Shown here: in pieces, positions 1 to 23,834 of the stretch
Numbering within the stretch: position 1 is the stretch's first letter
Layout of the letters: each line of letters begins with the position of its first letter
From: a virus
Lineage: Duplodnaviria > Caudoviricetes
Virus record (IMG/VR): IMGVR_UViG_3300044472_000046
Coordinates: 1-25,870 of that record
DNA length: 25,870 nucleotides
Reading direction: 5' to 3' (one strand)
Notes under the pieces: generated by a model
Seen by the model: only the letters and a program-made list of their open reading frames with translations
What the model was told of the DNA's origin: nothing
Database searches by the model: none
Program-made: the position numbers and the translations under genes

Positions 1-2526
1 CGCCCACAGCGCCAAGGCCACGCCATCGGCGTCGAGCGTGCCGGCTTCGCGGCCGTCCTCGAGAGCCTTGCGCACCTGCGCAAGACCGCGCTCAGGCAGC
101 GCCGGGGCCTTCACCTCTTGCGCACGCTGCTGCTCACGCATGAACGTCTCGTCGATGTTCGGTAGGCCTAGGTCGAGAGCTTCGTCGCCCGCTTCGGCCG
201 GTCTGCCGGGCTGATCCCCGACTGGTTTGGTTGGGGCCTCTGCAGCGCCGTCGGCCCCGGGTTGTTCGCCGGGGGCTGTAGCTGCGCCAGGGGGCTGTTC
301 GGCGCCGGTTTCAGCGCCTTGGCTGCCGCCAGCAGCCGGCTTGGTCGCATTCTCATTGGATTTCGCCTTCTCGATGATGGCCTGCACGGCCTTGTCGAAA
401 GCCACGGGGCTGCGCTCGTGCTGCGCAGCTGCCTTCTCGACGGCCTGCGGGTCAGCGTCGAGCGCGCGGCGCACGTCCATCGCACGACCTGCATCGTTGT
501 CGCCCAGGCCGTGGGCCTTACGCCAGGCCGGCTCGTCGAGGTACGTTACTTCGCCGACCGGGATCGGTTCTTGGGGCGGGGCTTCGCCGCCCGGCGCTGC
601 ACGCTGTAGGCTATCGCCAGGGCCTGCTTCTGCGGCTTGCCCGCCTTCATTTCCGCTGACACGTTCTGGTTGAACGCTACCTTGCTGCGGGACTTGTTCA
701 GCGGCATTCGGTGCTCCTTGGGCAGGGGCGCCGCCCTGCGGTTCGAACGGGGCTTGCGTCGCGGTGAGTTCCGGCGGCCCGGCTTTCGGCGGCGCCGGCG
801 GCTGCATCGCGCGCCCTTCCTCGAGCGCGGCTGCATTGCGCGCGGCGAGGCGCTTCTGCGCCCACTCGCTGCCGAGAACAGCGCGCAGTGCTGGGCGGCC
901 GGTCAGCGCGGCGGCTGTCCGGGCGATCCCGCTCGGGCCTTCCAAGGCCGCGAGAACCAAGTCCAGGCCGCCGGCGCCCGTCGTGCGGCCCTTGCCGGCT
1001 TTCGTCAAGCCTTGGCCGCCGAACTCCTTGGCGAACTTGGCGATCTGCAGGCCTTCACCATCGAGCGGCACGCCCTTGTCCAGGGCGCGCTTGAATACCG
1101 CCATGTTGATCTCGCCGCTCGGCGCCGAACGCATCGCGTCGTCGAGCACGTAGGTCTTCGCGATCTGCTTGCGCGCTGCTTGGTAGCTGCTCACAGCGTC
1201 GGCGAGAGCCGGATCGCCGCCCTCGTCAACCATCTTCTGCAGCGCGCGGTTCATGCCGTTGTCCACGGCCTGCGCCGCGTCGCGGTACGAGCCGCCGAGC
1301 TTCTTGTCGCCGGCGCGAAAGGCCTTGTCGGCTTCGTTGCGCAAGTCCTTGACCACCTCGATGGCCGATGCGGTGTTCGCCTCATCGACGCGCAGACCGT
1401 CTACGGCCTTGAGGATCGGGTTCTTGGCGATGTCGGACTTCGGGTAGTCCTTCGCGGCCTCGAGGTAGGGCGACACGATCTTGTCGAGGTCGGCGTTGTA
1501 CTGCGCGTCGTTCGTGAAGGTGCCGACATCCTTGACGGCAGCGTAGTCCTCGCCGGCCTTGGCGCGCAGTTCTTTCGTCGCCTCCGGCGTGAGGGGGGTG
1601 TCTTCCGGCAACCCGACCCACTTCTGGCCGAGCTTCGAAGCGTTCTCGACGTTGTGCGCGGCCAGGTTCTGCGTGAGCGCGGGCTTACCGGCCAAGGACT
1701 CTGTAGCACGAGCAGTCGCACTGCCGCCGCCGGCCTCCTGCGTGAGCTTGAATCCAGCGTCGAGGGCTTCCTGCCGTGCTTGAAGCTTCGGCTCGGCGAG
1801 CTTGGCTTGCTTCGCGCCTTCAGCGAAGGTTTGGGCCGCGACCTGCTGAGAGGTGCGCACCGCTTCAGGGGCGCCAAGTTTCGCCGCAACCCGGGCCGCT
1901 ACATCACGCGGCATCTCGTTGGGCAGTTCCCGGCGCAGCGCAGCGCCGAGCGGCCCAACGGGGCCCTGAAACGGGAGGGTCAGCAGTGTCGCGCCGAGCG
2001 GCGTCGCGATTTCGTTGACAGCGTAGTTGATCGCGCCCGCACCAGCTTGGCCTATCTCGGTCCGAGGCTCGTAGCCGTACTGCTGTGCGGCCGCACTGAA
2101 GGTTTGCTCGGCCGACGGAATCTGCGCTTGGTTCGTGTCGATCTGCTCACGCGATGCACCTTGTGCCAGATCCAGGCCGAGCCGCCCGACGCCGCGTACA
2201 GCGTTGACCGCTGTCGCGAGTGCGCCGACGATACCGCCAACCAGGCCGCCAGCGGCATGCAACCCGGTCTCGCCGATCCCGACCATGCCGCGCGCAGGGC
2301 CGAGAAGTGCAGCCTTCAGCGGTGTCTCCGCTGCCGGTTGCTGCGGTCCTGGTGCTGAGGCATCCCGGTTCGCGTAGACCGGGTTTCCTTGAGCGTCCAG
2401 GCCGCTCGGGATCGCGGCCGTGCCGGAGCGCGGCGCGGGGGGCGCCCCCGTGCCATCTGGCACGAACCCCGGCGGCAACGGTGGCGCTGCGTCGAGTTCA
2501 AAGCCGGGCGGCAACGGTGCGGTCAT
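1..2526 (-). CDS. Large internal virion/DNA ejection protein, 3'-partial (at least 842 aa, starts MTAPLPPGFELDAAPPLPPGFVPDG)
   Basis: ATG at 2526 overlaps the upstream stop (ATGA). I read this frame to position 1 and found no stop, which explains its absence from the ORF track. It has an Ala/Gly-rich N-terminus, a helical core (…LRNEADKAFRAGDKKLGGSYRDAAQAVD…YQAARKQIAKTY…) and a low-complexity segment below ~880. It sits last in the ejection cluster. Confidence 0.85.
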   Translation of the reverse strand, partial: MTAPLPPGFELDAAPPLPPGFVPDGTGAPPAPRSGTAAIPSGLDAQGNPVYANRDASAPGPQQPAAETPLKAALLGPARGMVGIGETGLHAAGGLVGGIVGALATAVNAVRGVGRLGLDLAQGASREQIDTNQAQIPSAEQTFSAAAQQYGYEPRTEIGQAGAGAINYAVNEIATPLGATLLTLPFQGPVGPLGAALRRELPNEMPRDVAARVAAKLGAPEAVRTSQQVAAQTFAEGAKQAKLAEPKLQARQEALDAGFKLTQEAGGGSATARATESLAGKPALTQNLAAHNVENASKLGQKWVGLPEDTPLTPEATKELRAKAGEDYAAVKDVGTFTNDAQYNADLDKIVSPYLEAAKDYPKSDIAKNPILKAVDGLRVDEANTASAIEVVKDLRNEADKAFRAGDKKLGGSYRDAAQAVDNGMNRALQKMVDEGGDPALADAVSSYQAARKQIAKTYVLDDAMRSAPSGEINMAVFKRALDKGVPLDGEGLQIAKFAKEFGGQGLTKAGKGRTTGAGGLDLVLAALEGPSGIARTAAALTGRPALRAVLGSEWAQKRLAARNAAALEEGRAMQPPAPPKAGPPELTATQAPFEPQGGAPAQGAPNAAEQVPQQGSVQPERVSGNEGGQAAEAGPGDSLQRAAPGGEAPPQEPIPVGEVTYLDEPAWRKAHGLGDNDAGRAMDVRRALDADPQAVEKAAAQHERSPVAFDKAVQAIIEKAKSNENATKPAAGGSQGAETGAEQPPGAATAPGEQPGADGAAEAPTKPVGDQPGRPAEAGDEALDLGLPNIDETFMREQQRAQEVKAPALPERGLAQVRKALEDGREAGTLDADGVALALWA
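546..707 (-). CDS. Small basic 53-aa protein MPLNKSRSKVAFNQNVSAEMKAGKPQKQALAIAYSVQRRA…, nested out of frame in the large ejection gene
   Basis: AAGGAG (719-714) lies 6 nt before the ATG at 707, and the stop is TAA at 548-546. The sequence resembles the widespread small phage protein pattern MPLKKG.S…IS.NI..EM.AGKPQKQAVAIA (recalled, not searched). Confidence 0.7.
   Translation of the reverse strand: MPLNKSRSKVAFNQNVSAEMKAGKPQKQALAIAYSVQRRAAKPRPKNRSRSAK
714..719 (-). promoter_or_regulatory. Shine-Dalgarno AAGGAG of the nested 546..707 gene
   Basis: Minus strand reads CCAAGGAGCACCGAATGCCG. Confidence 0.65.
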
Positions 2527-4574
2527 GCCGGAACCCACTGGCCGTTGACGAGCTTGATCCGTTCCCCCGTCTTCGGGTTCGTAGCCGTCTGGGGCTGCTG
2601 CGCGGCCGGCGCCGCAGTGGGCTTGCCCAGTTGCGACATCCGGTCACGCACGCCCTGCAACGCTTCGCGCGCAGCCTGCTTGCCGTTCGCAGCTTCCTTC
2701 GCCATCACGTTGTCGATCAGGCTGACGATGGTCTTCGACGGCAGATCGGCGTTTGCCAACTGGTCCCCGGTGTGAGTAGCCGAGACGGTCAGTTGCGCAT
2801 TCGACATCGGGCCGGTAAGCAGGCGCTGGTGCTCACGAGCCAGCCCAACCAAGGCGGCACGCAGGTTGTTGTAGTCGGCATCGCCGAGCGCACCCTTCAG
2901 CGCGTTGATCGGCTTGTTGAACAGCGGGCCGCCTTCGGTCGCACCGCCCTTAGCAAGCAGCGACTTCACGAGTTCGCCCTGCTTGAGCAACGTATCGTTG
3001 TACTGCTCCACGGCTGTGGTGTACTTCTGCCGATCGGCGAGCGTCTTCGTGTAGGCCGCATACTGCGCCTTGTTGGTGCCGACGTCCTGCGGCGACAGGC
3101 CGAGTTCTTGCGCCATCTCAGGGATGCGGTCTTTCACTGCGGCGATCAACGCCTGCCCCACCTTGCCGCGGGCAAGGCCTACCTGCCAGCCGTTGTCTCC
3201 CGCGATCGACTGTGTAGCGTAGAAATCGACGGTGCGCTGGCGCTTCTCTTGGATCTCTGCGGGGGACAGGAACTTCGTACCCGCGACCGTGCCGTCCCCG
3301 TTGACACCCGGAGCGGCAGCAGGCCCTGTCGGCTTGACCTTTATCAGACCGGCTGCGACGCGAGCGGCCTGGGCTTTGTCTGCTTCGCTCAGGTCGGATT
3401 TCTTGATGTCGGCGAGCTTCTTGCCGAGCGGCCCGGTAGTGGTGTCCTTCGGCGTCGGCAGCGTGCCGGCTTTCTGCATGGCTGCGACGGCCGTGTCTCG
3501 GTCCACGCCGTTGTCGAGCATGTACCGTTTGATCGCGTTCTCTTTCTCCTCCGTGGCGCCGACCTTCGGCGAGGCGCCGAGGTGCCGCAGCGAGTTGAGG
3601 TATGCCTGCGCCGAGGGATCGTCTTGCCCGGCTGCGAGCGCCTTGCCGATGCCGGGGTTCGCCGCCATCGCGGAAACGGCCTCGAGGCGGTGGATGCGAT
3701 CGACAGCGTCTTCCATGTCGAGGGATGCCACCATGTCGCCGGGGTGCGCCGAGCGGTTCTGCGTCACCGGGGCGATGTAGGGCGGCAACGGGTTGCCGTT
3801 GGCATCCACCGTGTCGATGGCGAGCACCGGGTGGATCTTCGTCGGGTCGTTCTGATCGGGCACGATCTTCACGAGCCGCTTCGCTACGATACGGCCGCCG
3901 TTGGGCGCCGTCTCGCCGAGGCCCTTCGCCAGCTCGGGCTGGAACAACGCATTGAGGCCGCGCAGCATCATCTGCTCGTTGCCCGTGCTTTGCCCGGTCT
4001 TGAAGTCGGTCACGGCCTGAGCAACCACCGACGGCTGCCCGTCTTTCGTCGGCATGAAGTCGGCCACGGGGCGGTCCGTCGTGGCCGTGATGGTCTGCAC
4101 CAGGTGCGCGGGGTCCATCTGCCGGATGTCGAGTTGCCCGGTCTGCAGCTTCGACACCGTGTCCTGCGCCTCTTGCTTCATCTGACCCACGAGGGGCGAG
4201 ACGAGCTTGTCGCGCACGGCGCGCAGCGCCGATGCATTGGCCTGCTGACGCTGGGTGAAGTCCTGCTGGTATTGCGCGGGAGGTGCTTGACCGGTGCGCT
4301 GCTGTTCCGCTGCCGCAGCGGCCGCCTCCTTGGCGAGTTCAGACTGCTCGCCTAAGAGCGCGGCCTGCTGATCGGCCGTGGTCTGCCGGTCCATCGCCCA
4401 CTGATCGTGCTTCGCTTGGCGGTCGGCGAGATCCTGCGCGCGCTGGTCGGCGGCCGTCTGCCGCGTGTTCTCGAACTCGCGCTGCTTCTGCGCCTGCTGT
4501 TGCGCGTCGAAGCGCAGCCCGAGGTTGAACCCGGACTCCAGGCCTTCGGCAGCGGCGCCAGCGACGGAAGCCAT
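2523..4574 (-). CDS. Internal virion/ejection protein (683 aa, starts MASVAGAAAEGLESG)
   Basis: Start moved to the ATG at 4574 (TGATG overlap with the upstream stop). Gln/Ala-rich coiled-coil N-terminus and a C-terminal ATNPKTGERIKLVNGQWVPA motif. Lies in the ejection cluster. Confidence 0.85.
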   Translation of the reverse strand: MASVAGAAAEGLESGFNLGLRFDAQQQAQKQREFENTRQTAADQRAQDLADRQAKHDQWAMDRQTTADQQAALLGEQSELAKEAAAAAAEQQRTGQAPPAQYQQDFTQRQQANASALRAVRDKLVSPLVGQMKQEAQDTVSKLQTGQLDIRQMDPAHLVQTITATTDRPVADFMPTKDGQPSVVAQAVTDFKTGQSTGNEQMMLRGLNALFQPELAKGLGETAPNGGRIVAKRLVKIVPDQNDPTKIHPVLAIDTVDANGNPLPPYIAPVTQNRSAHPGDMVASLDMEDAVDRIHRLEAVSAMAANPGIGKALAAGQDDPSAQAYLNSLRHLGASPKVGATEEKENAIKRYMLDNGVDRDTAVAAMQKAGTLPTPKDTTTGPLGKKLADIKKSDLSEADKAQAARVAAGLIKVKPTGPAAAPGVNGDGTVAGTKFLSPAEIQEKRQRTVDFYATQSIAGDNGWQVGLARGKVGQALIAAVKDRIPEMAQELGLSPQDVGTNKAQYAAYTKTLADRQKYTTAVEQYNDTLLKQGELVKSLLAKGGATEGGPLFNKPINALKGALGDADYNNLRAALVGLAREHQRLLTGPMSNAQLTVSATHTGDQLANADLPSKTIVSLIDNVMAKEAANGKQAAREALQGVRDRMSQLGKPTAAPAAQQPQTATNPKTGERIKLVNGQWVPA

Positions 4575-4951
4575 CAGAAGGCCCCTGGCGGCATGTTGGC
4601 CACCAGCATGCACACCGCGAAGGCACTCCCGGCAAGGCCGCCGAGCGTTCCGCCGATCACGCCGCCGAGGCCGGGCGCGATCGCATTGCCTGCGATGGCG
4701 CCTAACGTCGAGCCGAGCTTCGCCATGCCGGCCTTGCCTTCCGCTTCGAGCTTCTGGTTCGCGAGGTTGCGGGTGTTCTCTTGCTGCGCTGCGAAGCTGA
4801 GTTCACCGCCGGCCTGCTTCTCCTCATCCTGACCGAACTCGGCCAAGCCGCCCCCGAAGGGGTTCATGCCGCCGCGGCCGCCGAGCGCAGAGCGCCCACC
4901 CAACGAGGCCCCGAGTCCGAAGGAACTGCCGCCTGCCACTGTCTTTGCCAT
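4574..4951 (-). CDS. Small ejection/pilot protein with glycine-zipper hydrophobic C-terminus (125 aa)
   Basis: GSTLGAIAGNAIAPGLGGVIGGTLGGLAG GxxxG repeats; coupled to its neighbours. Confidence 0.75.
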   Translation of the reverse strand: MAKTVAGGSSFGLGASLGGRSALGGRGGMNPFGGGLAEFGQDEEKQAGGELSFAAQQENTRNLANQKLEAEGKAGMAKLGSTLGAIAGNAIAPGLGGVIGGTLGGLAGSAFAVCMLVANMPPGAF

Positions 4952-4952
4952 G

Positions 4953-5357
4953 TCAGACCCCTACAGGTGCTGGGTTGCCGAGGATGCTCTCCTGGCGGTT
5001 GCGTGTGAGTTCGCGCGCCGTGTTCTGCGCCTGCACGTCCGCCAAGGACTTGCTCAAGCCGAAGCTGCGATTTTTCGCGGCTTGCTCTTCCGGTGTCAGC
5101 TCGACACCCAGGCCGCGCAGCTGACGCTGCATCGCGCCTTCCTGCGAGGCGTACGAACTGTTGACGCGCGTACTCGCCTTTGCCATCTCCTGCCCCGGCA
5201 GCGTCGCGTCGGTGGCGTAGCTGATGAGTTGGTTCTCGACCGGCACGAATGTCTGAACGTACCGATTCCACTGGTCGCGCGTGAGCGCAGCGTAGGTCAT
5301 GCCCGCTGCGTTGCTTTGCTGCGCGCCACCACCGAACAGAGAACTGAGGAATCCCAT
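4953..5357 (-). CDS. Small internal virion/ejection protein (134 aa, starts MGFLSSLFGGG)
   Basis: Strong RBS AAAGGAGG and TGATG overlap at 5357. The MGFLSSLFGG-type N-terminus is typical of podovirus ejection proteins. Confidence 0.8.
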   Translation of the reverse strand: MGFLSSLFGGGAQQSNAAGMTYAALTRDQWNRYVQTFVPVENQLISYATDATLPGQEMAKASTRVNSSYASQEGAMQRQLRGLGVELTPEEQAAKNRSFGLSKSLADVQAQNTARELTRNRQESILGNPAPVGV

Positions 5358-6088
5358 CACCAGCCTCCTTTGATCTTGAGGCCGCCAGTCGGCGCCGGCG
5401 CGCTGCTCGACCACGGGTCGAAGCTCGGCGTCGACAGCCCAGGCACCTTCGGCGTGCTGCCGGCGTCCCACACACCGGCCGGCGCGGTGATCGTGCCGGT
5501 GCCGCCGGTCGGCGCTGTCGACGGTTTCATCAGCGCGCCGATACCTTGCTGCAAGCCGTAGCCCGCGGCGCTGCCCAGCAGGCCCGCAACGCCGGCTGCC
5601 TGCTGCGACTGGACCTGCGCGGTCTCCTGCGCCTGCTGTGCGCCCATCGCGGCCTGCTTCTCCATGCCGGTGCCGACTTGCTCGCGCTCACCGCGGCCGA
5701 GCGCTGTGATGGCGCCCAGGCCGCGCGTGTAGGCATCCGTGATCTGCTCGTCGGCGATCAGGCCGCCCATGGCGCTGCCGTGCGCTGCGTTTTCCTCGAT
5801 ATCACCCAGGCCCAGCTTGAAGCGCGAAGACGCCGGGCCGGCGCCCATGTTCGTCAGCGACTTCTCGACAGCGCCTTGGGTCTGCTCTGCGGCGATCGCC
5901 GCATCGGTTGATGCCTTGCCGGCAGCCATCTTGCGCGCGACCGAGCCCTCTGCACCTTCGGCCTTGATGTCGCCGATCAGCTTTTGCTGCACAGGCAGCC
6001 AACGCAGTTTGTAGTCCTGCATGAGGTTGACCGCGTGCTCGCGCATTGCGGCTTCCTGCGGGGACTCTTCGACGCCACCTTTGCTCAT
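5357..6088 (-). CDS. Internal virion/ejection protein (243 aa, starts MSKGGVEESPQE)
   Basis: ATGA overlap at 6085-6088. Ala/Gly/Gln-rich helical protein with a glycine-zipper-like GVAGLLGSAAGYG segment. Confidence 0.8.
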   Translation of the reverse strand: MSKGGVEESPQEAAMREHAVNLMQDYKLRWLPVQQKLIGDIKAEGAEGSVARKMAAGKASTDAAIAAEQTQGAVEKSLTNMGAGPASSRFKLGLGDIEENAAHGSAMGGLIADEQITDAYTRGLGAITALGRGEREQVGTGMEKQAAMGAQQAQETAQVQSQQAAGVAGLLGSAAGYGLQQGIGALMKPSTAPTGGTGTITAPAGVWDAGSTPKVPGLSTPSFDPWSSSAPAPTGGLKIKGGW

Positions 6089-6474
6089 TGAACCAGCCTC
6101 ACGAACTCGAGGGTTCCTCGGCGGTGCCACTCCGGCCCCAACCGTCTTGCCCAGCCGCGCCGCCTTGTCTGGAAGGCGATGGTCTGAGCTCCGAGTTCGC
6201 GCCCGATGCTGTCGAGCGCGGCGACTTGCCTCTCGAATGCGCCGAACCGGAAGGCTACGGCGATCCACACGAACAACTCGAGGCCTTCACTTCCGGGGCG
6301 TAGGTCGATGACCACCATCCCGTCATCGCAGGCCAAGCAGAGCGCTCGATTTGCCTCGCATTGTGCCCGGATTTCATCGATCTCGGAAGCCGAAGCTACG
6401 CCGGGGCGCAGCCCCCGGCAGGCATGCGTGACGAAAACCGCCTCTTCGATCTCGAAGTCGGTGCCGGAGATCAC
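6085..6474 (-). CDS. GNAT-like (acetyltransferase-fold) protein preceding the ejection genes (129 aa)
   Basis: LELFVWIAV…LDSIGRELGAQTIAFQTRRRGW pattern. Podoviruses commonly carry a GNAT-like gene between tail and ejection genes. The fold call is an inference. Confidence 0.6.
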   Translation of the reverse strand: MISGTDFEIEEAVFVTHACRGLRPGVASASEIDEIRAQCEANRALCLACDDGMVVIDLRPGSEGLELFVWIAVAFRFGAFERQVAALDSIGRELGAQTIAFQTRRRGWARRLGPEWHRRGTLEFVRLVQ

Positions 6475-7379
6475 GATACCGTCGGCGCGAGGCCGGTGAG
6501 AGTCAAAGCGCCGGCGCCAGGCACGAATGCGACGCTGATCGTCGGCGCGAGGCCGGCTAGAGCCAGCGCGGCCGCACCCGGGTGCATCGTGCTGTTGAGC
6601 GTGAAGGTCGGGTTGCCGCTCACGCCGTCCGGGTACGTGATGGCGATACCGTCACTTCCTTGCAACGTACGCGTGATGAGCGAACTACCGACCTTCACCA
6701 CCAGGCCGTCGGGACTGCTCAGCAGACTCGACAGCAGCGCCAGGGCGTCCTTCACGGCGCCGTAGGTGACCGGCAGGAAGTCCTCGAAGCCAGGATCGAA
6801 CCCAGCAACGCGCAGCGCCGGCCAGTCCGGCGCGACGTACAGCTTCTTGGTGTCGACGGCTACCCCGATGGGGATTGCGACATCGAGATAGCTCGGGTTC
6901 TGGGTCAGCCCGCCGCCGATGTCGGCGTAGACAGCACGGTGCACGACAAACGAAGCCGTCGGGATGCCGAGTTCGCCGTAGGTCTGCACCGTCACGCTCG
7001 CGCCGAGCGCTGCGCCGATGGTCGCGACACCGATCGGCGCGTAGACGCCGGTGGGGCTGCTCGGGTCCATCGGCGACACGCCGCCGTCCGATGTTGGGTA
7101 GACGACATCGTAGGCAACGATCGCAGCGTCCGCGCGCAGCGTCACGACATTGCCGGCTACGACACCGAGCAGTGAGGTCACGGTGCCGCGTAGCTGTGAA
7201 ATCTGCGCCTGCAGGGACGCGAGCGTCACTGCGGATGTGCTTGCTGCGGCCCCGCTTTGCAGCGTTGATACCAGAGCTTCGATCGCCTCGATGCGTTGGC
7301 GCGCGCTACTGACGGCCTCTTGGACAGGCCGCAGCAAGAGCTGGTTCGGCGTCGGGATCGCCGGGCGGCCGAGAGCCAT
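6471..7379 (-). CDS. Tail spike/needle or fibre protein (302 aa)
   Basis: N-terminal coiled coil, then a DUF2190/head-fibre-like segment (AIVAYDVVY…PIGVAT…VTVQTYG…IGVAVD). Next comes a fibre-type repeat ITRTLQGSDGIAITYPDGVSGNPTFTL, and the protein ends in two PGAxALxLxGLAP repeats. It follows the nozzle gene. Confidence 0.65.
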   Translation of the reverse strand: MALGRPAIPTPNQLLLRPVQEAVSSARQRIEAIEALVSTLQSGAAASTSAVTLASLQAQISQLRGTVTSLLGVVAGNVVTLRADAAIVAYDVVYPTSDGGVSPMDPSSPTGVYAPIGVATIGAALGASVTVQTYGELGIPTASFVVHRAVYADIGGGLTQNPSYLDVAIPIGVAVDTKKLYVAPDWPALRVAGFDPGFEDFLPVTYGAVKDALALLSSLLSSPDGLVVKVGSSLITRTLQGSDGIAITYPDGVSGNPTFTLNSTMHPGAAALALAGLAPTISVAFVPGAGALTLTGLAPTVS

Positions 7380-7381
7380 GG

Positions 7382-9247
7382 TCAGGTCAACTCCGCGACA
7401 TCTTCGGCCGCTTGCACCACCCGTACGGGCGATGTGCCGAGGATTTCATACTCCAAGGAGGTGTACTCGTCGGTTTCGAGCAGCGTGAACTCGGTCTCGC
7501 CTTCGATGACGACTTCTTCGATCAACACGCCGTCGCCGTACAGCCGCACGAGGATGTTCGTGTAGTCGGTTGCCTTCACCTGCATGATCGACAACCATGC
7601 AGGCCGTTCGAGCAGCCACAGCTTGCCGCGGTAGCGATAGGTCAGGTGCACCGATGGGGATGCATCGAACTGGTAGATCGTCGTGCCGTCGATGTAGTGC
7701 GGCGGGTTCGCGCGCACCGGCAACAGCTCGTCATCGGGCTCGTTGTCCATGTCGAGCACCATGTACAGCTTGTCGGTGATCGGGTCGACGTGCGCGGCCG
7801 AAGCATGGAAGGCCATCGGCACGATGCCGAAGCCGTCGGACTTCATGTCGATTGCGTAGCACCCGCTGTTCGATCCTGATTCCCAGAACATCCAGTAGAT
7901 GCTGTTGTGCGCGACGCCACGGATACTCGACGGGTTCAGCGCCTGCCACTGCTCGCGCGTGAAGACGCTTTCTGTGAGATTCTGGATCTGGCCCACACCT
8001 GCGACGGCCATAAGCCCGTTCGGGCCGGCGAAGACCACGCCGATGCGCGTGAGGTACGCGAAACTGCGCTTGCTCACGCAGGCGTACGGCACTTCCGACT
8101 TCGCCATGCTGTATGCGGCCGGGTCGTTGCCAGATGCCACGTAGACGAAGCTCTCTGTGCCGATCACCACCGTCGTGTCGATGTTGCCGATGCCGACGAT
8201 CGCGGTGTCGGTGTTCAAACGATACGCCACGGGCCATGCGTGCGGCTGGTTCTGCGCTGACAGGCACAGTTGGTTCTTGCTGAAGCCCGCCATGACGCCG
8301 TTCGGCAGCGCCAGGATGCGCTCGAGGTCGTCGGGCGGCAGCTCCCAGTTGTCCGACTGCAGCACCTCGCCGAGCTCACTGTCAGTGAGCGTGTCAGTGT
8401 AGTCGGCCGTGCCAAGCGGGATCTCGGCGACGAAACGGAAGGCAGTGCCTGTCGTGCCGGTGGCCGCGCGATATATGCGCTTGGTCGTGATGACGTAACC
8501 GGTGCTCACGCCGGTCGGCTCACTTGTGGGCGTGGTGATCGTCGCCGACACGCCGTCGGGGCGCACAACCGTCAAGCTCGGCAGGCTCGGCGCGCTCTCT
8601 TCGCCTAGATCGTTCACGAAGGTGAAGACGTAGCTCGTCGCTACGTTTGCCGGCACGTACCCAGTGGAACCGCTGGCCTGGACATGAGCGTTGTCGTACC
8701 AGGCGAAGACCGTCGAGCCCGTTTGCCCGCCCGTGCCATAGAAGCCGCAGTAGTCTCCGCGCGCGATGTTGACCGTGGCCGTGCGCGTTGCGATGTCAAC
8801 GTCGCCCGTCGTGCGCACGGTCGCCGTGACCGTCGTTGTGTTGTCGCTGTTCACAACGGCCTTGATGTGCATGCGCGCCCAGCTATCGTCAGGCAAGCTG
8901 CTCAACGGGATGATGACCGTTGTGACCATCGAGCCGCGGTCAGCCCACGAGATCGCAGTCCCTAACTGGAAGTAGTACCCGTCAGCATCATTGGCCTCGA
9001 GCACTACTGCAATGCCGTTGCCGCTGGAGTCGCGCCACAGGCCCCACCCAGCTTGCCGTGTGCCTGATGCAGCGCGTGAGGCCCGCCAATCGCTCGTAAA
9101 CTCGATGACCGTAGCTGATGCTACGCCGAAGTTGCGTGCGGCGTATGTCGGAATGCCGCCGCCGATCGTGTCGCGCCAAGCAAGACGGTACGATGGCGCA
9201 GGGTTGCCGATCGTCGCGTCTTGAATGACATTGCTCTCGAAGGCCAT
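7382..9247 (-). CDS. Tail nozzle (tail tubular B-like) protein, C-terminal part with an inserted beta-sandwich domain (621 aa)
   Basis: Motifs YVFTFVNDLGEESAPS, KRIYRA, LPNGVMAGF, PHAWP, ACVSKRS and FTREQWQALNPSSI match the 933W/Bcep22-type nozzle as I recall it. In frame with 9251..9757 across one TAA. Confidence 0.8.
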   Translation of the reverse strand: MAFESNVIQDATIGNPAPSYRLAWRDTIGGGIPTYAARNFGVASATVIEFTSDWRASRAASGTRQAGWGLWRDSSGNGIAVVLEANDADGYYFQLGTAISWADRGSMVTTVIIPLSSLPDDSWARMHIKAVVNSDNTTTVTATVRTTGDVDIATRTATVNIARGDYCGFYGTGGQTGSTVFAWYDNAHVQASGSTGYVPANVATSYVFTFVNDLGEESAPSLPSLTVVRPDGVSATITTPTSEPTGVSTGYVITTKRIYRAATGTTGTAFRFVAEIPLGTADYTDTLTDSELGEVLQSDNWELPPDDLERILALPNGVMAGFSKNQLCLSAQNQPHAWPVAYRLNTDTAIVGIGNIDTTVVIGTESFVYVASGNDPAAYSMAKSEVPYACVSKRSFAYLTRIGVVFAGPNGLMAVAGVGQIQNLTESVFTREQWQALNPSSIRGVAHNSIYWMFWESGSNSGCYAIDMKSDGFGIVPMAFHASAAHVDPITDKLYMVLDMDNEPDDELLPVRANPPHYIDGTTIYQFDASPSVHLTYRYRGKLWLLERPAWLSIMQVKATDYTNILVRLYGDGVLIEEVVIEGETEFTLLETDEYTSLEYEILGTSPVRVVQAAEDVAELT

Positions 9248-9250
9248 CGG

Positions 9251-9757
9251 TTAGTCCGAGAAAGGAACGACAGGAGAGATCGTCCACGCCGACGCGAGTT
9301 CGTCCCCGTGGTCTGTCACATCGACCGAGAATGTCGTCGGCGAGGAGTCCACGCCCAGTGAGACTGTCGGCACGCTGTCAGGCCCCGGCACGCCGAGCGG
9401 CCGCGTCGTGACAGGGTAGGGCGGCGCTCCGGTGGTCGCGAGTGCGTAGTTCGTGAACCTCGGCTGCGAGTACAGCAGCGGCGCTGTCAAATAGGCCCGG
9501 TACGTCGTGTCGCCTGCGATCGTGCCGCGCGCTACATCAACGTCGGCCGTCCACGAGAGCCACTTGTCGTGCAGCAGGTAGATCGTGCGCACGAGGTCGG
9601 GATTCGCAAGGCCGAGCGTCGTGATGAACTGGCGCCATGAGCGCAAGTCGCCGGTCAACAGCTGCGCGTTCGTTGCATCCTGCGCAGCGTTGTCGGGGAG
9701 TGCCCGTGGCGTGACACGAGGTGCTTCGCCGCGAAACGATTCGATCGCGCGGCGCAT
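9251..9757 (-). CDS. Tail nozzle protein, N-terminal part (168 aa), ends at an in-frame TAA
   Basis: FRGEAPRVTPRALPDNAAQ…RTIY…WLSWTADVDV…LGVPGP is the N-terminus of the same nozzle family. TAATG overlap with the upstream gene. Confidence 0.75.
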   Translation of the reverse strand: MRRAIESFRGEAPRVTPRALPDNAAQDATNAQLLTGDLRSWRQFITTLGLANPDLVRTIYLLHDKWLSWTADVDVARGTIAGDTTYRAYLTAPLLYSQPRFTNYALATTGAPPYPVTTRPLGVPGPDSVPTVSLGVDSSPTTFSVDVTDHGDELASAWTISPVVPFSD

Positions 9758-10719
9758 TAGGAGTAAACCCCGTTGACGTACTGCACGCCGATCCGTCCGC
9801 TAGTGGAGTCGCTGATTTCAAGCGACATCACCGTACACACAGGCATTTCCCCGACACCGATCGAAAGCGTAGCCGCTAGCGCGCCATCGATGAGCAACTC
9901 CACCGTCTGCCCTAGATTGCTGACCCGCACTGCGTAGTCGTGGGGCGCTGTCGGGTTACTCACCGGAATGCTACCCGTGTCATACCCGGTCACTGCGGTG
10001 GTGACAGAGGCCCCTGCATTCAGTACGCCGGAACTCAAGTACACGTAGATGTTGGGGCCGCGCAAAGTAGCTGTGCTGTCCCATGCATTGAGTGAGACAT
10101 AGGGGTCGTCGTTCGTTGTCAGCGAAGTGACGCCAAGCCCGAAAGTAAACCCTGTGGATGCTATCGGGGCCCCTGAGGGATCGCTGAAGTAGTCTCCCGC
10201 GGTGTTAATTTGCACGCTGCCGCTACCATCAAGCTCGACAGCTGCATTTACGGGGCCGCCGCCCATGTCGACCCACGAGGCACCGACTTCGCCGACGTGA
10301 CTTGCAAGCCCTCCTGCAGCCCCCGTGAAGGTGTCGTACAGGAACGCTGCCGAGAGAGTTGGTGCGGTGCCGGAGAGCGCTAAAGCGCCGACACCGGGCG
10401 CTGCGGCCAACGGCACTTGTACGCTCGGCGCCAACGTTGCCAGTCCCAATGCCGCAACCTGCGGTTGCACAACTACGTTCATGCCGAGGACCGCGGCGGG
10501 CGCATCGCTGCTCAGCCCCAAGCTGCCGGCATCGGGGCTAGCAGATCGGCTTGCAAGAACCGTGGGCGCGCTGCCGGAGAGTGCCAGAACCCCCGGGAAA
10601 GTACCGGCGGTGCTAGGCAGAATCGGGGCGAAGCAAGCTAGGCTCAACGTACCCGTCGGTACGGCCAACGCTACATTGTGCAACCCGCGCGCAACGACAC
10701 CAGCAAATGCAGTACGCAT
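9757..10719 (-). CDS. Fibre/receptor-binding-like protein: five PxxGxLxLxxxAP repeats plus a beta-rich (lectin/ConA-like) C-terminal domain (320 aa)
   Basis: Repeats visible at about residues 19-125. The C-terminal half is beta-rich (YDTFTG…HDYAVRVSNLGQTVELLIDG). The lectin-like fold is inferred. Confidence 0.65.
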   Translation of the reverse strand: MRTAFAGVVARGLHNVALAVPTGTLSLACFAPILPSTAGTFPGVLALSGSAPTVLASRSASPDAGSLGLSSDAPAAVLGMNVVVQPQVAALGLATLAPSVQVPLAAAPGVGALALSGTAPTLSAAFLYDTFTGAAGGLASHVGEVGASWVDMGGGPVNAAVELDGSGSVQINTAGDYFSDPSGAPIASTGFTFGLGVTSLTTNDDPYVSLNAWDSTATLRGPNIYVYLSSGVLNAGASVTTAVTGYDTGSIPVSNPTAPHDYAVRVSNLGQTVELLIDGALAATLSIGVGEMPVCTVMSLEISDSTSGRIGVQYVNGVYS

Positions 10720-10723
10720 GCCG

Positions 10724-11272
10724 TCACCCCGCCGCTAAGTCCCCGGCCAGGAGCCAGGTATCAACGCCGATACGAATGAGTGAGGCTGCTGCGTATCGCC
10801 CGGCCAGTTGCGCGCTAAGCCCGGTTCGGATCTGCAACGTAACCCCGCCGGATGCTGTCACTGTCACCGCCCCGGAGCCCCCTGCGGCTAGCAGTATGGA
10901 ACCTGTATCTGATGGCGTCAGCCCCATACCCGCATCCGTACCGACGTTGAGCGTCGCTGAGTAGCTGACTGAAGAGTTCGTTCGGACCCCGTTGTTCAGA
11001 TCGCTCGCGCTGAGGTTGTACGTCGTATCGGGGGATACCGTGTTCCATGAAAACGAAGGCGCTGAGCCACCGCCGGGGATATCGACGGTTACCTTATTCG
11101 CGTTCTCGCCGGTTCCGCGTGTCGCCGTGACGCCAGCGCCTGTGAAGTCGACGACTTCCGCATCAGCCCCGCCCAGGGCCGTACCTTCATCCTGAAACTG
11201 GATGAAGTTCGGGAAGCCGTCGTCGGTCTGCGGCGGAAAGTCAGAAACCGGCGTGATGCCGAAGGTTGCCAT
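10724..11272 (-). CDS. Short tail fibre/adapter-like protein (182 aa)
   Basis: IQFQDEG…VDFTGAGVTAT motif and a C-terminal YNLSASD…GAVTVTASGGVTL…YAAASLIRIGVDTWLLAGDL domain, both common in phage fibre proteins. Confidence 0.65.
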   Translation of the reverse strand: MATFGITPVSDFPPQTDDGFPNFIQFQDEGTALGGADAEVVDFTGAGVTATRGTGENANKVTVDIPGGGSAPSFSWNTVSPDTTYNLSASDLNNGVRTNSSVSYSATLNVGTDAGMGLTPSDTGSILLAAGGSGAVTVTASGGVTLQIRTGLSAQLAGRYAAASLIRIGVDTWLLAGDLAAG

Positions 11273-11275
11273 CGC

Positions 11276-11920
11276 TCACCTCACGAAGGGGCGCGGGCGC
11301 ACGCGCACCGAACCGGTGTTGAATGACCGCTGTACTTCGGCCTTCGCGTTGCTCACGCCGGCTTGAAATTCCTTCTGGCGGCGCACCGATTCAATCGGGT
11401 TCGTCCACGGCTGCTTAGGGATGCAGTAGAGGTACGACAGCGCGCCGGCCTCGACCGCTGAGCGGTACTTCACGAGCCCAGACTGTGGGATCTGCACTGC
11501 GTCTTCCTTGGGCTGCACGATGACCGTGACCAACAGGTTGTACACGCCGTTGGGTAGCGGGTCGAGCGCGATCTGCGCCTGGGGGATGTAGCAGTAGCGC
11601 ACCGGCATGCCGGCCGGCATGTTCGGATCCCACTGCGATGAATCGCTGGTGACGATCGGCCACTGCTGCAACTGGCCACCGATGACTTGACTGCCCGACA
11701 CGGCGCGCACAGCCACGATATCGAGGTAGGGGTCGCTGCCGAGGTCGTACTGCCGCGTGTCAGCGACGGTCGCGCCCGCAATCGCGAGCCGCAGGTACTG
11801 GCTCTGGCACGCCCAGTCACGGTACGCTCGAGCAAAGGCCCGGGCCAGCGTGATCGTGGGGCAGCGCTGAACGATCTGGGCGAGATTCGCTACTTGGTCG
11901 TTGACGTTGACCATGTTCAT
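11276..11920 (-). CDS. Head-tail adaptor/tail tubular A-like protein (214 aa, starts MNMVNVNDQ)
   Basis: ATGA overlap at 11917-11920. GALSYLYCIPKQPWTNP and LDPLPNGVYNLLV motifs. Position between capsid and nozzle genes. Confidence 0.7.
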   Translation of the reverse strand: MNMVNVNDQVANLAQIVQRCPTITLARAFARAYRDWACQSQYLRLAIAGATVADTRQYDLGSDPYLDIVAVRAVSGSQVIGGQLQQWPIVTSDSSQWDPNMPAGMPVRYCYIPQAQIALDPLPNGVYNLLVTVIVQPKEDAVQIPQSGLVKYRSAVEAGALSYLYCIPKQPWTNPIESVRRQKEFQAGVSNAKAEVQRSFNTGSVRVRPRPFVR

Positions 11921-12561
11921 GCGTCGCCCTCGGTCACATTCACCTTCGGCGCGACGGCGACCTGGGCCTTCGACTTCATGCCGATGAGCATGCCCCACTG
12001 CTGCATGTAGCTCGCGCTCTTGGCGAGGTCTTGCTTCTTGCTGTTCTTGGCGTAGGCCTTGCCGAGCACGTAGTTGGTGAGCGGCGCCTGGTAGTTGTCG
12101 GTGACGGGGATGTCCTCGCCGCTCGAGCCGCTGAGTGCGGCCGGCACGGCGCCGTACAGGATCTGCACGCTGCCGGTACCGTCATTGGGCGGGAAGACTT
12201 TGAAGCGCGTCGGCGCCCGCGGGTCGGCCGTGAAGTGCTCGACTTCGGCCTGCTGCGTGGCGCGCGGCCACAGGCGGTTCGCTCCGTCGAGCAGGGCGTC
12301 GTCGACTTGACTGACGACACGCCCCGTGCTGTTCTGGTCGATGTCGAGCAGCGCGATGCCCCCGGCCGGCAACTGCTGCGTGTTGCCTGCAACGAGCGTG
12401 ACGTATTCCTGCACCGTGAACATCTCGGGCTTGACGTTGGCCGTGGCGGTCAACGCCTCGTTCAGGTAGCCCACGAGCTCGCTGCGCGACCAGGTGCGAC
12501 GGGAACGGTCCAACAGCGTGGCGCTCACGCTATCGAGGATCGTTTCCGTCGAGATCGACAT
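11917..12561 (-). CDS. Head-tail adaptor protein, DUF6682-like (214 aa)
   Basis: LLD…WSRSELVGYLNEA…KP, LVAGNTQQLP, FKVFPP and LTNYVLGKAYAK motifs. The family name is recalled. Confidence 0.7.
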   Translation of the reverse strand: MSISTETILDSVSATLLDRSRRTWSRSELVGYLNEALTATANVKPEMFTVQEYVTLVAGNTQQLPAGGIALLDIDQNSTGRVVSQVDDALLDGANRLWPRATQQAEVEHFTADPRAPTRFKVFPPNDGTGSVQILYGAVPAALSGSSGEDIPVTDNYQAPLTNYVLGKAYAKNSKKQDLAKSASYMQQWGMLIGMKSKAQVAVAPKVNVTEGDA

Positions 12562-12562
12562 G

Positions 12563-12997
12563 TCAGGCCAGATCCACGCCGGCAGCGCGCGCCACGGCGT
12601 GACGCAGGGCAGTCAGGTGGCCGTTCGGGTCGAGCTTCACGTCGGGATAGTTTTCGCGGGCGAAGGTCACCAGTTCCTCGCGCGACGCCTTCATGATCTC
12701 GAACGGTTCGAGCGGCAGAGCATCCTCGACGCTCGGCGCGCGCAGCCCGCTCGTGGCCAGCCAACGCATGCGCTCGGCGTGCGTCGCCTTCAGGTCGCCG
12801 GTATAGACGCGGTACTTCGGGTGCGCGGGGATCGCCGGCTCTTTGCGGTCAGCGCTGCCGACACGCCCAGCGAGCCGCGGAACGTTCGGCATTAGGCGGC
12901 CGTCATCTATGTTGATGAGCATGGGGTGGCGCTTGTCCTGGCGGTTGCGATTGCGCTGGGCCTCAGCGAGACGCATTTCGACGGCTTCGGAGATCAT
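12563..12997 (-). CDS. Hypothetical protein (144 aa)
   Basis: RBS GAGGA upstream; tiles exactly between the terminator and the adaptor gene. Confidence 0.7.
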   Translation of the reverse strand: MISEAVEMRLAEAQRNRNRQDKRHPMLINIDDGRLMPNVPRLAGRVGSADRKEPAIPAHPKYRVYTGDLKATHAERMRWLATSGLRAPSVEDALPLEPFEIMKASREELVTFARENYPDVKLDPNGHLTALRHAVARAAGVDLA

Positions 12998-13030
12998 GAG
13001 TCGTTCCTCGGTTGATCGGTTGGGTGTTGG

Positions 13031-13055
13031 AAAACCGGCGCCCGCAGGCGCCGGT
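13031..13055 (-). terminator. Intrinsic terminator-like hairpin
   Basis: Minus strand ACCGGCGCC-TGCG-GGCGCCGGT-TTT: perfect 9-bp stem with a short U tract. Confidence 0.65.
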
Positions 13056-13072
13056 CACTGGCTTTCGGGTGG

Positions 13073-13270
13073 TCAGGAACCGCTCGGGCCGCCAGGGGTG
13101 TAGGCCGGGCGCTTCATCTTGCCCGCCTCGCCGTTGCTCTGGCCGGGGCCGAGGGGCGGATTCGGGTAGCGGGCCTTCGCCTTGCCGCCCGCCTGCGACT
13201 GTTCCTTCTGGATGGTCGCGGGCGGTACGAGCACGTCGTAGTTCGCGCCGTAGGGGTTCTTCGTCTTCAT
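13073..13270 (-). CDS. Small basic Pro/Gly-rich protein after the capsid gene (65 aa)
   Basis: RBS CAGGAG 7 nt before the ATG; flanked by two hairpins. Confidence 0.7.
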   Translation of the reverse strand: MKTKNPYGANYDVLVPPATIQKEQSQAGGKAKARYPNPPLGPGQSNGEAGKMKRPAYTPGGPSGS

Positions 13271-13301
13271 GGGTCAACTCCTGTTGAATTGCGAGACGGA
13301 C

Positions 13302-13330
13302 AAGACGAGGGCCTTGTGAGCCCTCATCTT
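13302..13330 (-). terminator. Stem-loop just after the capsid stop (partial terminator or mRNA stabiliser)
   Basis: AAGATGAGGGC-TCACAAG-GCCCTCGTCTT: 11-bp stem with one G-U pair and no strong U tract. Confidence 0.45.
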
Positions 13331-13337
13331 ACCCGCT

Positions 13338-14270
13338 TCAGGCACGCTTGACGACGGCAGTGCCGACGTAGTTCGGGCCGATCACTTGGAAGCCGAAGAC
13401 CATGAGGCCGCGGATGATGTACCCGAAGTCATTCGGGTTGTCGATCATCTGGCACTCGACGATCTGGGCCGCGAAGGTCAGGCCTGCGCTGTGGCCGAAC
13501 ATGCAGTAGCTCGCCGGGCCGGGGCTCGACTGCGTGAGCAGGTTGCGGCTCTGGTACATGGTGAAGCGATCGATCTCGCCCACCTTGCCGTTGCGCAGGA
13601 TCGACACACCGTCACCCGCCAGGGAGGCGATGCGCAGATCGGACTTCTTAATCAGCGCGATCATCCACGGCGGGGCGACGAACCAGCGGCCCTCGTCGGA
13701 CACGTTCTGCTCGTCGAGCACCGTGCCGCAATCAACGATGAACTCGACCACAGAGGTCTTGTCCAGCGCGACCGGCGAGGTCGAGTCGCCGAGGTTGATG
13801 TTGCCCGAGTCGGCTCCGGCGCTGTGCCCCGCGTTCTGCGCGGACACCTCGGCCGGAATGGTCGTGAGCATGTCCGCGTCCGCGGCGATGCGCAGCTGGA
13901 TCGAACCGTCGTTGGCGAAGACATCGGCCAGGTCCAGGTCGGACTGGCGCGAGTCGACGGTCGACAGCGCGACGGCGAACGACTTCGCCTGGTTGATCGC
14001 GAGCGTGACGGAGTTGTTGGTCGGGTACTGGGGCGACAGGCCCGCGCCGATCACGTAGTCACTGATCGTGATGTCCGGGATCGTGCGAATCTTGACCTGC
14101 GCGCCGAAGCCCGCGATCTCGCCTTCGTAGTCCGTCGAGGCGATTTCGCCGAAAACGGTGGTCTTGTAGAACTTCTCGACCAGCTTGCCCGAATAGATTT
14201 CGGGGTCGAAATTGATGGTACCCGCCGGACCGTAGTCGGGGATACCCGATGCGCGAGGAACGCCACTCAT
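13338..14270 (-). CDS. Major capsid protein (310 aa)
   Basis: FDPEIYSGKLVEKFY…TDYEGEI…GAQVKIRT, LDEQNVSDEGRWFVAPP, NGKVGEIDRFTMYQS and FGYIIRGLMVFG motifs. RBS CAGGAG. Follows the scaffold gene. Confidence 0.92.
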   Translation of the reverse strand: MSGVPRASGIPDYGPAGTINFDPEIYSGKLVEKFYKTTVFGEIASTDYEGEIAGFGAQVKIRTIPDITISDYVIGAGLSPQYPTNNSVTLAINQAKSFAVALSTVDSRQSDLDLADVFANDGSIQLRIAADADMLTTIPAEVSAQNAGHSAGADSGNINLGDSTSPVALDKTSVVEFIVDCGTVLDEQNVSDEGRWFVAPPWMIALIKKSDLRIASLAGDGVSILRNGKVGEIDRFTMYQSRNLLTQSSPGPASYCMFGHSAGLTFAAQIVECQMIDNPNDFGYIIRGLMVFGFQVIGPNYVGTAVVKRA

Positions 14271-14298
14271 GGTTTTCTCCTGAAGAGTGCGTTACCGG

Positions 14299-15255
14299 TC
14301 ACCTACCGGCATGGAGCTTCAGCCGCGCCTCGAACTCTTTCCGTTCCGGATCCTTGACCTTGCCGAGTGCAGAGCGCTTGTAGAAGTCGCGCTTCTCTGC
14401 CGCCGTGAGCGGCCGCGCCATCTCTGCTGCGGGGGCCGGCAATTCGCCCGAAGGCGCGTTGCCCGTCCCCCGCGGCGCAACCGGCGGTGCCGGCGGCGCT
14501 TTGCTGGCCTTGTACGACTGGAACATCTTTGCGACCTTGGTCGCGTCCAACGCCCCGACGTGGCGGTCCAGCAGCTCTTGGCGCTGCAGTTGCGAGTGCT
14601 CGTCATCCTGCGCAAGCCACGCCTTCCACTCGTCGGCGGCATCGATCTCAGCGTAGTCCGGCACGAGCTCGGCGAGCTTGTCCACGAACTGCGTCTTGCG
14701 ATCGGTCACGGCCTGGGCGGCATCCGCGGCTTGGCGGTCACGAAGCGGCTTGATTTCCGCGTCGATCGCACTGCGAACCGTCGTCTGCGCGGCCTTCAGG
14801 GCCGTGGCCGCCATCGTGCGGCACTCATCCTCGCCCAAGGCTTGCACCTGTTCGGCCGTGAAGAACTGGCCGAGGTCGATGCTTGCGTCCGCAGGCGGGG
14901 TAGCGTTGGCTTGCAGGGTGCGAACTTGCTCCTGCAACTCGGTCAACCGGCGATTGAAGCCTTCTTGCTCCGCGCGCCGTTCGCCGCGTTCCTTGTTCAG
15001 CACGCCGGCTGTCACATTGAAACGCTGCTTCCAGTAGGCCGGGTCGCTCTCGCGGGGGTCTGCCGGGGGTTGCGGGGGAGGTGTCGGGTCACCGGTGGTC
15101 GCAGCCTGTGCGCTCGGCTCGGCCGGCGGCGCGTTCGGGTCTGCGGGATCGGTCTTCGGTTCGGTGCGTGCTTTGATGCGGTCCTCAATCGCTGCGGAAC
15201 GCTTCAGGACGGCCCGAGGAAGACGGGTTTCGTTCGTGGCTTGGGAAGCCTGCAT
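14299..15255 (-). CDS. Capsid scaffolding protein (318 aa)
   Basis: Pro-rich acidic N-terminus, WKQRF..AG followed by a coiled coil, LVPDYAEID..EWKAWL. Directly before the capsid gene, RBS GGAGA. Confidence 0.8.
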   Translation of the reverse strand: MQASQATNETRLPRAVLKRSAAIEDRIKARTEPKTDPADPNAPPAEPSAQAATTGDPTPPPQPPADPRESDPAYWKQRFNVTAGVLNKERGERRAEQEGFNRRLTELQEQVRTLQANATPPADASIDLGQFFTAEQVQALGEDECRTMAATALKAAQTTVRSAIDAEIKPLRDRQAADAAQAVTDRKTQFVDKLAELVPDYAEIDAADEWKAWLAQDDEHSQLQRQELLDRHVGALDATKVAKMFQSYKASKAPPAPPVAPRGTGNAPSGELPAPAAEMARPLTAAEKRDFYKRSALGKVKDPERKEFEARLKLHAGR

Positions 15256-15336
15256 ATGGGTCTCTCCACGATCCGTGGCTACCAGCGATGGCGCCAGGGG
15301 GTTCGCACACGGGATGCAGGGCGCGGTTCCCGAAAA

Positions 15337-15594
15337 TCACGCAGCTCGACGCGACGGTGAGGTGACCGTTGAAATGCTGCGGGTAATGCGTTGCTGAGCT
15401 TCGGTGATGTCGGCGATCAACTCATCGAGCTCCAGTGCGCGGCCCTGCTGCCGGTGAACCTCTTCACCGACAGAGGTGCGCAGCTTGGATTCACGTTCCT
15501 TCAGCTTCGCGTCGTAGATGCTGAGCAGCATCTGGCCTTCCGGTGATTTCGAAAACCGGGCCATGAAAGCCAGTTGATCGCCGCTCAATCGCAT
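15337..15594 (-). CDS. Small conserved head-module protein (85 aa, Bbp19-like position)
   Basis: F.KSPEGQ.LL…HRQQGRA..L pattern of the small helical protein usually found between portal and scaffold in podoviruses. Confidence 0.7.
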   Translation of the reverse strand: MRLSGDQLAFMARFSKSPEGQMLLSIYDAKLKERESKLRTSVGEEVHRQQGRALELDELIADITEAQQRITRSISTVTSPSRRAA

Positions 15595-15601
15595 GGTCGC
15601 G

Positions 15602-15630
15602 AGTGTACCTGCGGATCAGTCGTCAAGCAA
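15602..15630 (-). promoter_or_regulatory. Sigma70-like promoter, likely leaderless transcript
   Basis: TTGCTT (15630-15625), 17-nt spacer, TACACT (15607-15602), 7 nt, then ATG at 15594. No SD before that ATG. Confidence 0.5.
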
Positions 15631-17403: not shown

Positions 17404-17415
17404 GGCTTGGTCTCC

Positions 17416-19227: not shown

Positions 19228-19234
19228 AGGTGCC

Positions 19235-19585: not shown

Positions 19586-19586
19586 G

Positions 19587-20021: not shown

Positions 20022-20024
20022 CGT

Positions 20025-23707: not shown

Positions 23708-23739
23708 GTTGGGCACAGATTATGCACTGCGGCCGCCGG

Positions 23740-23774: not shown

Positions 23775-23834
23775 GAAATCGGAGACATGCCGGGCAACTT
23801 GGGCTGGCACCGCGAGTCTACCGCCGTAACCCAA

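Follow-up and report, generated by a model that had tools for sequence, protein, structure and literature searches.

A very probable dual-coded stretch in a giant phage gene: a small basic protein of the PHROG 2423 family nested in the +1 frame of an acidic linker

The DNA analysed here (the window, i.e. all 25,870 nt of IMG/VR virus record IMGVR_UViG_3300044472_000046) is a 25.9-kb piece of a podovirus-type phage whose virion genes are all encoded on the minus strand. The virion module ends with a giant gene, and two small genes, here called A and B, lie inside it on the same strand and in its +1 frame (Table 1). Gene A starts at ATG 707–705, six nucleotides (CACCGA) after a Shine–Dalgarno (SD) sequence, ends with a TAA at 546 and encodes a peptide with a net charge of +13. 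It covers host residues ∼611–664 (numbered from GTG 2538) and is wholly contained in the open outer frame, with 645 open host codons upstream and at least 182 downstream; the last codons of its tail overlap a PIPVGEVT repeat of the host. A first-pass annotation, made from the sequence alone, had read AAGGAG-6 nt-ATG before a 53-aa basic open reading frame (ORF) in a shifted frame, with the host frame open across it; both readings were confirmed, and the strand, which it left unstated, is minus. Over A and B the giant ORF reads as acidic Ala/Gly/Glu/Gln linkers with a host-frame net charge of −6 and −8, respectively, and these two segments are the only host runs of at least 45 codons without T at position 1 in the giant gene of the window. 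In other hosts, such T-free runs were not specific as a detector of nested genes.

An open 53-codon +1 frame with an ATG appeared in 719 of 5000 synonymous re-draws of the host and is not rare; thus the family match and the comparative signals, not ORF length, carry the case. In a profile search, A matched PHROG 2423 with an E-value of 1.3e-17, covering 49 of 52 positions; matches to the family occur in 363 GenBank phage records. The family of small phage proteins named for this peptide in that annotation was right, and the absence of significant homologues, named as the finding that would speak against it, did not materialize. With the host protein kept fixed, the real +1 frame scored 87.8 bits versus a maximum of 22.6 bits in 200 synonymous re-draws, of which 159 reported a score (the family profile includes the window's peptide as one of its 25 rows). 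No Pfam hit was obtained for the window's peptide. DUF6496 (PF20106) also comprises small basic proteins, but it hit only 1 of 25 members of the A family (E 0.043) and did not reach the Pfam gathering score, and one Atlas cluster with 11% DUF6496 members scored 0.92; the two would be distantly linked at most. A Logan contig identical to the window over 10–2600, without any indel, is not independent, as it is probably the source of the window.

Relatives were gathered by the peptide (best 80 of 187), by the host-frame shadow, by a DNA pattern in three collections and by the neighbouring gene, and a copy was called nested if at least 200 host codons lay upstream and at least 50 downstream. The comparison of nested with free copies, which had been proposed as a check, gave 17 clearly nested and 109 free-standing copies among 164 distinct family peptides, the others being 33 N-terminal modules of longer proteins and 5 possibly nested copies. 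Counted by locus, the nested share was 5/80, 10 (plus 2 uncertain) of 118, 9 (plus 3) of 99 and 2/5. Both the shadow search and the DNA pattern preferentially pick up nested copies, so 5/80 is the least biased of these values. Moreover, all 17 nested copies have ATG or GTG exactly at the first residue of the family, and none has a stop before the end of the two predicted helices, where broken copies would be harder to find by the searches used. A region search with the host-frame shadow returned only two known loci. Clade members match the terminase of the window at 68–75%, and nesting also occurs in phages without such a match (G010, a complete genome, and the partial records G011 and G012); in the complete genomes G007, G008 and G010 the nested copy is the only A match. 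The nested copies in L342 and L343 lie in contigs of Ramlibacter/Burkholderiales genome bins, a weak hint at betaproteobacterial hosts. Annotations marked ‘x2’ in the GenBank hits H2 and H15 were considered as nesting and rejected as short end overlaps.

All nested copies occupy the +1 frame of their giant host gene. In this arrangement, host-frame stops (T|AA, T|AG, T|GA) come from T at the third position of a small-gene codon and can be removed silently in the small gene, and Met-Lys forces TGA in the other shifted frame. Hence the genetic code dictates this uniformity, which is not evidence of common descent. In frame, the A module occurs in up to 1184 database proteins and was N-terminal in the fusions inspected. 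It often begins longer proteins with repeated xxGG motifs or PF19846 (e.g. L012, L047 and L067), which suggests a portable N-terminal tag.

In host genes with nested copies, an SD match of at least 6 nt preceded 9 of the 17 nested starts versus 1 of 482 other out-of-frame ATGs, and start regions of nested copies were less folded than typical host windows (median percentile 0.05). In the host gene of the window, A is the sole out-of-frame ATG ORF of at least 25 codons with an SD of −6 kcal/mol or stronger.

Selection was visible in both frames. Among the 17 nested copies, pairwise differences at A codon positions 1, 2 and 3 were 0.24, 0.19 and 0.38 (0.28, 0.24 and 0.40 outside the searched DNA pattern), so that A position 2, which is the host wobble, varies least, and A position 3 is host position 1. 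Nested peptides are as conserved as free ones (0.73 versus 0.71). Compared with the 16 other nested copies, A of the window shows 129, 120 and 218 differences at its three codon positions, and A-frame identity exceeded host-frame identity in 16 of 16 comparisons. For close pairs, using four nested blocks picked after inspection, changes at host positions 1 and 3 numbered 37 versus 12 in nested genes and 358 versus 701 in the flanks (Fisher p 7e-9). Third-position T that would make a host stop was absent (0/132), as the definition of nesting requires; other third-position T was found at 5/279 sites in nested copies versus 116/607 in GC-rich free copies. Likewise, T at host position 1 was found in 9 of 874 overlap codons versus 100 of 2040 codons in 60-codon flanks, and this depletion leaves a host read-out with nearly no F, W, Y or C (0.2% versus 5%). 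The host-frame shadows are 47% identical among nested copies versus 31–40% among free copies. The inner frame thus shows purifying selection, and the outer frame shows selection through the overlap. On these comparative signals the stretch over A is very probably dual-coded, which was one of the two options given in the first-pass annotation.

That annotation had noticed a single nested gene and missed the second. Gene B lies 190 nt beyond A and encodes a peptide with a net charge of +9. In L311, which has B and no A, the 20-codon core of B is identical to that of the window at 19 of 19 residues in the +1 frame versus 10 of 20 in the host frame, and the differences at host positions 1, 2 and 3 number 9, 2 and 0. 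In five loci found independently of the B pattern, the B motif differs by 0.20, 0.05 and 0.50 at B positions 1, 2 and 3. The pattern does not include the N-terminal block of B; across nine loci, identity in this block is 61% in the B frame versus 36% in the host frame, with a slight position bias (0.37/0.28/0.39). Altogether, around a dozen related loci conserve B as a +1 reading frame. When IMG/VR was scanned once with an exact pattern, 14 sequences matched: 9 lie in giant genes in the +1 frame, two of these at contig edges, and 5 are unrelated; no free B gene was among these 14, and B was seen only nested and in one clade. B had no PHROG hit, and its best ESM Atlas score, 0.85, is a weak lead only.

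Further nested ORFs were seen in related giant genes. About 150 codons behind B, the loci L329, L338 and L340 carry a third conserved basic ORF with a GTG start (VALTPNL...), 85% identical in the +1 frame versus 61% in the host frame over 18 codons. In L286, a 181-codon +1 ORF (5795–6337, minus strand) with an NPGP motif lies in a giant gene of 2248 aa under a long T-free host stretch; it had no relatives in IMG/VR. Near the end of the giant gene of L313, which has no A, is a 29-aa Lys/Pro-rich +1 ORF with a strong SD (10222–10308, plus strand).

The host had been called an ejection protein. It is a large late gene at the end of the virion module, it likely starts at ATG 2526 in an ATGA overlap with the upstream stop, and in all 14 nested loci mapped the host is the largest gene and lies at the end of the virion module. 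Relatives of the giant gene carry LPD38 and ART-PolyVal, and 7 of the 16 scanned proteins that are hosts or candidate hosts of nested copies pass the curated cut-off for LPD38, ART-PolyVal, InPase, RadC/JAB or GNAT; the giant gene of clade member L337 matches a PHROG annotated ‘DNA ejection protein’. The 846-aa fragment in the window itself has no Pfam or PHROG match, and its C-terminus is outside the window. The name is thus backed by gene position and by the domains of relatives but by no family hit in the window's own fragment. No viral contigs related to this host were found by exact words, and the databases gave one long relative, P0002. The giant gene of L337 also contains, at residues 911–955, a 45-aa module (PHROG 25603) fused in frame, which matches short hypothetical Sinorhizobium phage proteins; it represents in-frame accretion alongside the out-of-frame kind.

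AlphaFold predicts that A forms a helix-turn-helix with helices at 9–21 and 26–41 and a loose basic tail (mean predicted local distance difference test score 82.9). Predicted viral structural relatives include modules in prohead protease (E 0.02, weak). In Pseudomonas phage Pa193 (Pbunavirus), the family member gp21 is 53% identical to A over 38 aa, and it was detected in mature virions by liquid chromatography–mass spectrometry with a Mascot score of 288 (PMC11456595), so that the earlier suggestion of a virion peptide is supported through a homologue. According to that paper, gp21 was not placed in the cryo-electron microscopy map, and ∼16-residue chains under the hexons were left unassigned; unlike nested A, gp21 is free-standing, between head morphogenesis and protease genes, and has no assigned function there. 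Judging from this one homologue, the product of A is probably located in the virion. Its charge, predicted fold and gene context slightly favour binding to DNA or to the inner capsid wall. One may speculate that the A family is a candidate for unassigned capsid-interior densities, e.g. the ∼16-residue chains under Pa193 hexons.

Gene A is gained, lost and moved within the clade. Among 15 loci reached via the neighbouring gene, nested A is present in 6 and absent from the complete hosts of another 6 (L311, L313–L316, which are one phage type, and L318); the remaining 3 stop ahead of the host gene or inside it. Where checked, complete hosts without A have an unrelated linker at its place and no decayed A; the host segment over A is likewise absent from close orthologues. 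Stops in this frame together with a lost SD in homologous genes, which had been named as a sign against the nested gene, were thus not what the relatives showed. The order along the host is A, domain, B in the window, domain, B, A in L086, and A directly followed by B in L306 and L309. L337 combines a nested B with a free A that lies 11 nt past the stop of the giant gene. Free A copies cluster with small basic genes: 34 precede a portal-like gene and 11 are located after large genes of a single family.

The nearest cultured relative by capsid protein is Rhizobium phage RHph_TM3_14A (L352), at 43%, in which no A match was found within the 20.9 kb read. Right behind its giant gene are free small basic genes (081–083). 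Its penultimate large gene, EVB41_085, contains near codon 609 an unannotated 92-aa +1 ORF that is preceded by a strong SD and is basic at its N-terminus and hydrophobic at its C-terminus; this is a cultured phage in which nesting can be tested.

In a peptide tree of 82 rows × 40 columns (5 uncertain copies omitted, free copies thinned at 85% identity), the free and nested states changed 13 times versus a shuffled mean of 15.8, and no branch was starred. Third-base sharing across lineages was 0.52–0.55 among nested copies versus 0.37–0.43 with free copies, which fits cassette transfer or convergence. Together with the approximately unbiased (AU) test, which does not reject a single origin of nesting (p 0.388), this makes repeated capture and the spread of one cassette both possible.

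Our best explanation for the whole, which we would give a probability of about 0.7, is that this stretch encodes both a linker of an ejected virion protein and a captured small basic virion gene. In the host frame, the stretch would encode a low-complexity acidic linker that belongs to a giant virion protein, likely an ejected one; A would likely be made by internal initiation on the late mRNA, at a ribosome-binding site of its own. Its product would likely be packaged inside the head and there bind DNA or the inner capsid wall. Small basic genes are found in clusters next to head and ejection genes, and the giant gene may have grown or recombined through them; the host frame could then have stayed open only in the +1 arrangement, since synonymous changes in the small gene suffice there to remove host-frame stops. 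Selection would then have purged third-position T elsewhere, which yields a host read-out without aromatics or Cys that works as a flexible linker; the dual-coded piece would be accessory and shift its place within the linker. A wider proposal, which we hold only tentatively and at slightly less than even odds, is that linkers of giant phage ejection proteins serve as landing sites for hidden operons of small basic virion genes, with +1 capture of old genes, recoding that lets their shadow serve as acidic linker, and repeated gain, loss and movement of the dual-coded cassettes across unrelated lineages, and with products that may condense DNA or chaperone the host protein.

Several results weigh against this explanation. 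Eight of the 17 nested copies have no 6-nt SD match, and the openness of A's start region in the window itself is no more than average (percentile 0.32). A pooled blind sliding scan across the genes of the window gave no codon-position inversion over A or B; over A, most alignments laid non-homologous linker there. The complete genomes G002, G015 and G016 have no A altogether, which indicates that A is accessory rather than essential, and the single origin that the AU test does not reject belongs here as well. A weak 43-aa search turned up no cultured phage with the nested form, and a search of sequencing runs listed no RNA run carrying the nested DNA. No solved structure resembling A was found in the PDB by sequence or with Foldseek; hence the case for a DNA- or capsid-binding role comes from the charge and fold of A and from its gene context.

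If A was captured and is no longer expressed, it could persist as a fossil merely because the host linker is conserved, and both its dispensability in the clade and the greater host-frame identity among nested copies would suit that. A fossil, however, would hardly concentrate its changes at the A wobble (host first position), retain its SD, keep its peptide as conserved as in free copies and show no early stop in 17 copies, with the reservation on broken copies given above; moreover, synonymous recoding of the host destroys the family match, and we regard the fossil as highly improbable. A programmed +1 frameshift, by which a shortened giant protein would end in the basic helix-turn-helix as a head-targeting tag, is just as improbable in our judgement. 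The +1 frame is open for 65 codons before the ATG in the window, and in-frame fusions of the module (33 of 164 peptides) are familiar, but in L021 the upstream open stretch is only 3 codons, all 17 nested copies keep the start codon of the family, 9 of them with a strong SD at initiation spacing, and the module is N-terminal in the fusions inspected.

Two other alternatives concern what A and B do and where they came from. The basic peptides might bind acidic linkers of the host protein within whose gene they are encoded and thereby compact or chaperone this giant protein for packaging; nesting would persist because it links both partners. This would account for the opposite charges on the same DNA, for nesting within the giant gene in the mapped cases and for the fact that B was found only nested, but the charge contrast follows from the code (AAG/AAA reads as GAA/CAA when shifted by one base), most A copies are free, often beside a portal gene, and occur also in myoviruses such as Pbunavirus, and relatives keep the giant gene without A. 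We consider it unlikely. As to origin, the first-pass annotation described A as overprinted, which would mean a new gene born inside its host with free copies derived from it, and it also raised absorption of a free-standing gene. A gene born by overprinting should be younger and narrower in range than its host frame; A is free or fused in 142 of 164 peptides, its range extends to the GenBank phage records counted above, and close orthologues carry unrelated linker at its host segment. Birth of A by overprinting is thus very unlikely; that route may apply to B, which was seen only nested and has no known family. For A, capture of an old gene by its host is likelier, and the free A just behind the giant gene in L337, together with the wide free-standing range, fits such absorption; the small gene looks like the older frame here.

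Among known systems, embedded spanins such as lambda Rz/Rz1 resemble A in that a small gene lies wholly inside another in the +1 frame of the same strand and is often unannotated (PMC6139136). That spanin survey outlines how separated genes might have become embedded, one possible route being stop-loss extension of the outer gene, and reports no family with both embedded and other architectures. Spanins as described there are lysis partners of similar size acting in one complex, whereas here the outer gene has 1,070–2,250 codons and is virion-related, one family is found free, adjacent and nested, the inner gene sits at varying places in its host and as many as two genes are nested. A two-component spanin, which would carry lipoprotein or transmembrane signals and lie among lysis genes, was considered for A and B and rejected; by inspection both are soluble basic peptides without Cys or a hydrophobic stretch, and both are in the virion module. 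Phage polyvalent proteins share common domains with hosts of nested copies, and their defining paper places them, as here, among late virion genes; its main text does not use the terms ‘overlapping’, ‘alternative reading frame’ or ‘frameshift’ (PMC5512222). The host fragment of the window, which lacks the C-terminus, has no such domain hit. De novo overprinting in viruses likewise involves dual coding with one low-complexity frame, but the polarity looks reversed for A, since the short nested frame would be older and more widespread and the host linker the newcomer. Neither this arrangement nor a description of the family was found in open-licence PMC and bioRxiv papers; this case contributes a family for which there is virion evidence, another nested gene beside the first and a free-to-nested series in one clade.

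Such a route to overlapping genes would be opposite to the textbook one, because a pre-existing gene is engulfed and it is the linker of its host that forms the new frame. As free, adjacent and nested states all occur in one phage clade, the steps can be studied directly. In many uncultured podoviruses, annotation would overlook virion genes hidden in the largest genes, and what are taken for ‘disordered linkers’ in polyvalent proteins may in some cases be shadows of other genes.

Table 1. Positions of the nested genes, their host and the virion genes in the window
Feature	Position	Strand	Basis or remark
Nested gene A, 53-aa basic PHROG 2423 protein, +1 frame of host	546..707	−	Profile match, predicted fold
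SD of A, AAGGAG, 6 nt before ATG	714..719	−	Duplex energy −7.7 kcal/mol
Nested gene B, 62 aa, basic, Pro-rich, NNPGPTALQRP motif, +1 frame	168..356	−	Weak SD; alternative ATG at 350
Host giant ORF, 846+ aa	1..2538	−	Truncated by window start; last gene of virion module
Preceding large gene, 696 aa	2523..4613	−	Conserved beside giant gene in clade
Podovirus-type virion module	4574..25562	−	Family hits, PHROG and Pfam
Terminase	25562-23835	−	
Portal	23716-21446	−	
Major capsid	14270-13338	−	
SU10-type adaptor	12561-11917	−	
Split PHROG 511 genes	9757-7382	−	
PHROG 610/611/596/594 genes		−	Part of virion module

The large gene preceding the giant gene gave no family hit in Pfam or PHROG and contains no out-of-frame ATG ORF with a good SD; it is likely another ejection protein. 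Between the portal and head genes lies a methyltransferase fused to an MptE-like domain (21449–20025, minus strand). PHROG 511 (‘internal virion protein’) is represented in the window by two consecutive minus-strand genes, 9757–9251 and 9247–7382, with 10719–9757 upstream of them; in relatives it is a single longer gene or is split differently.

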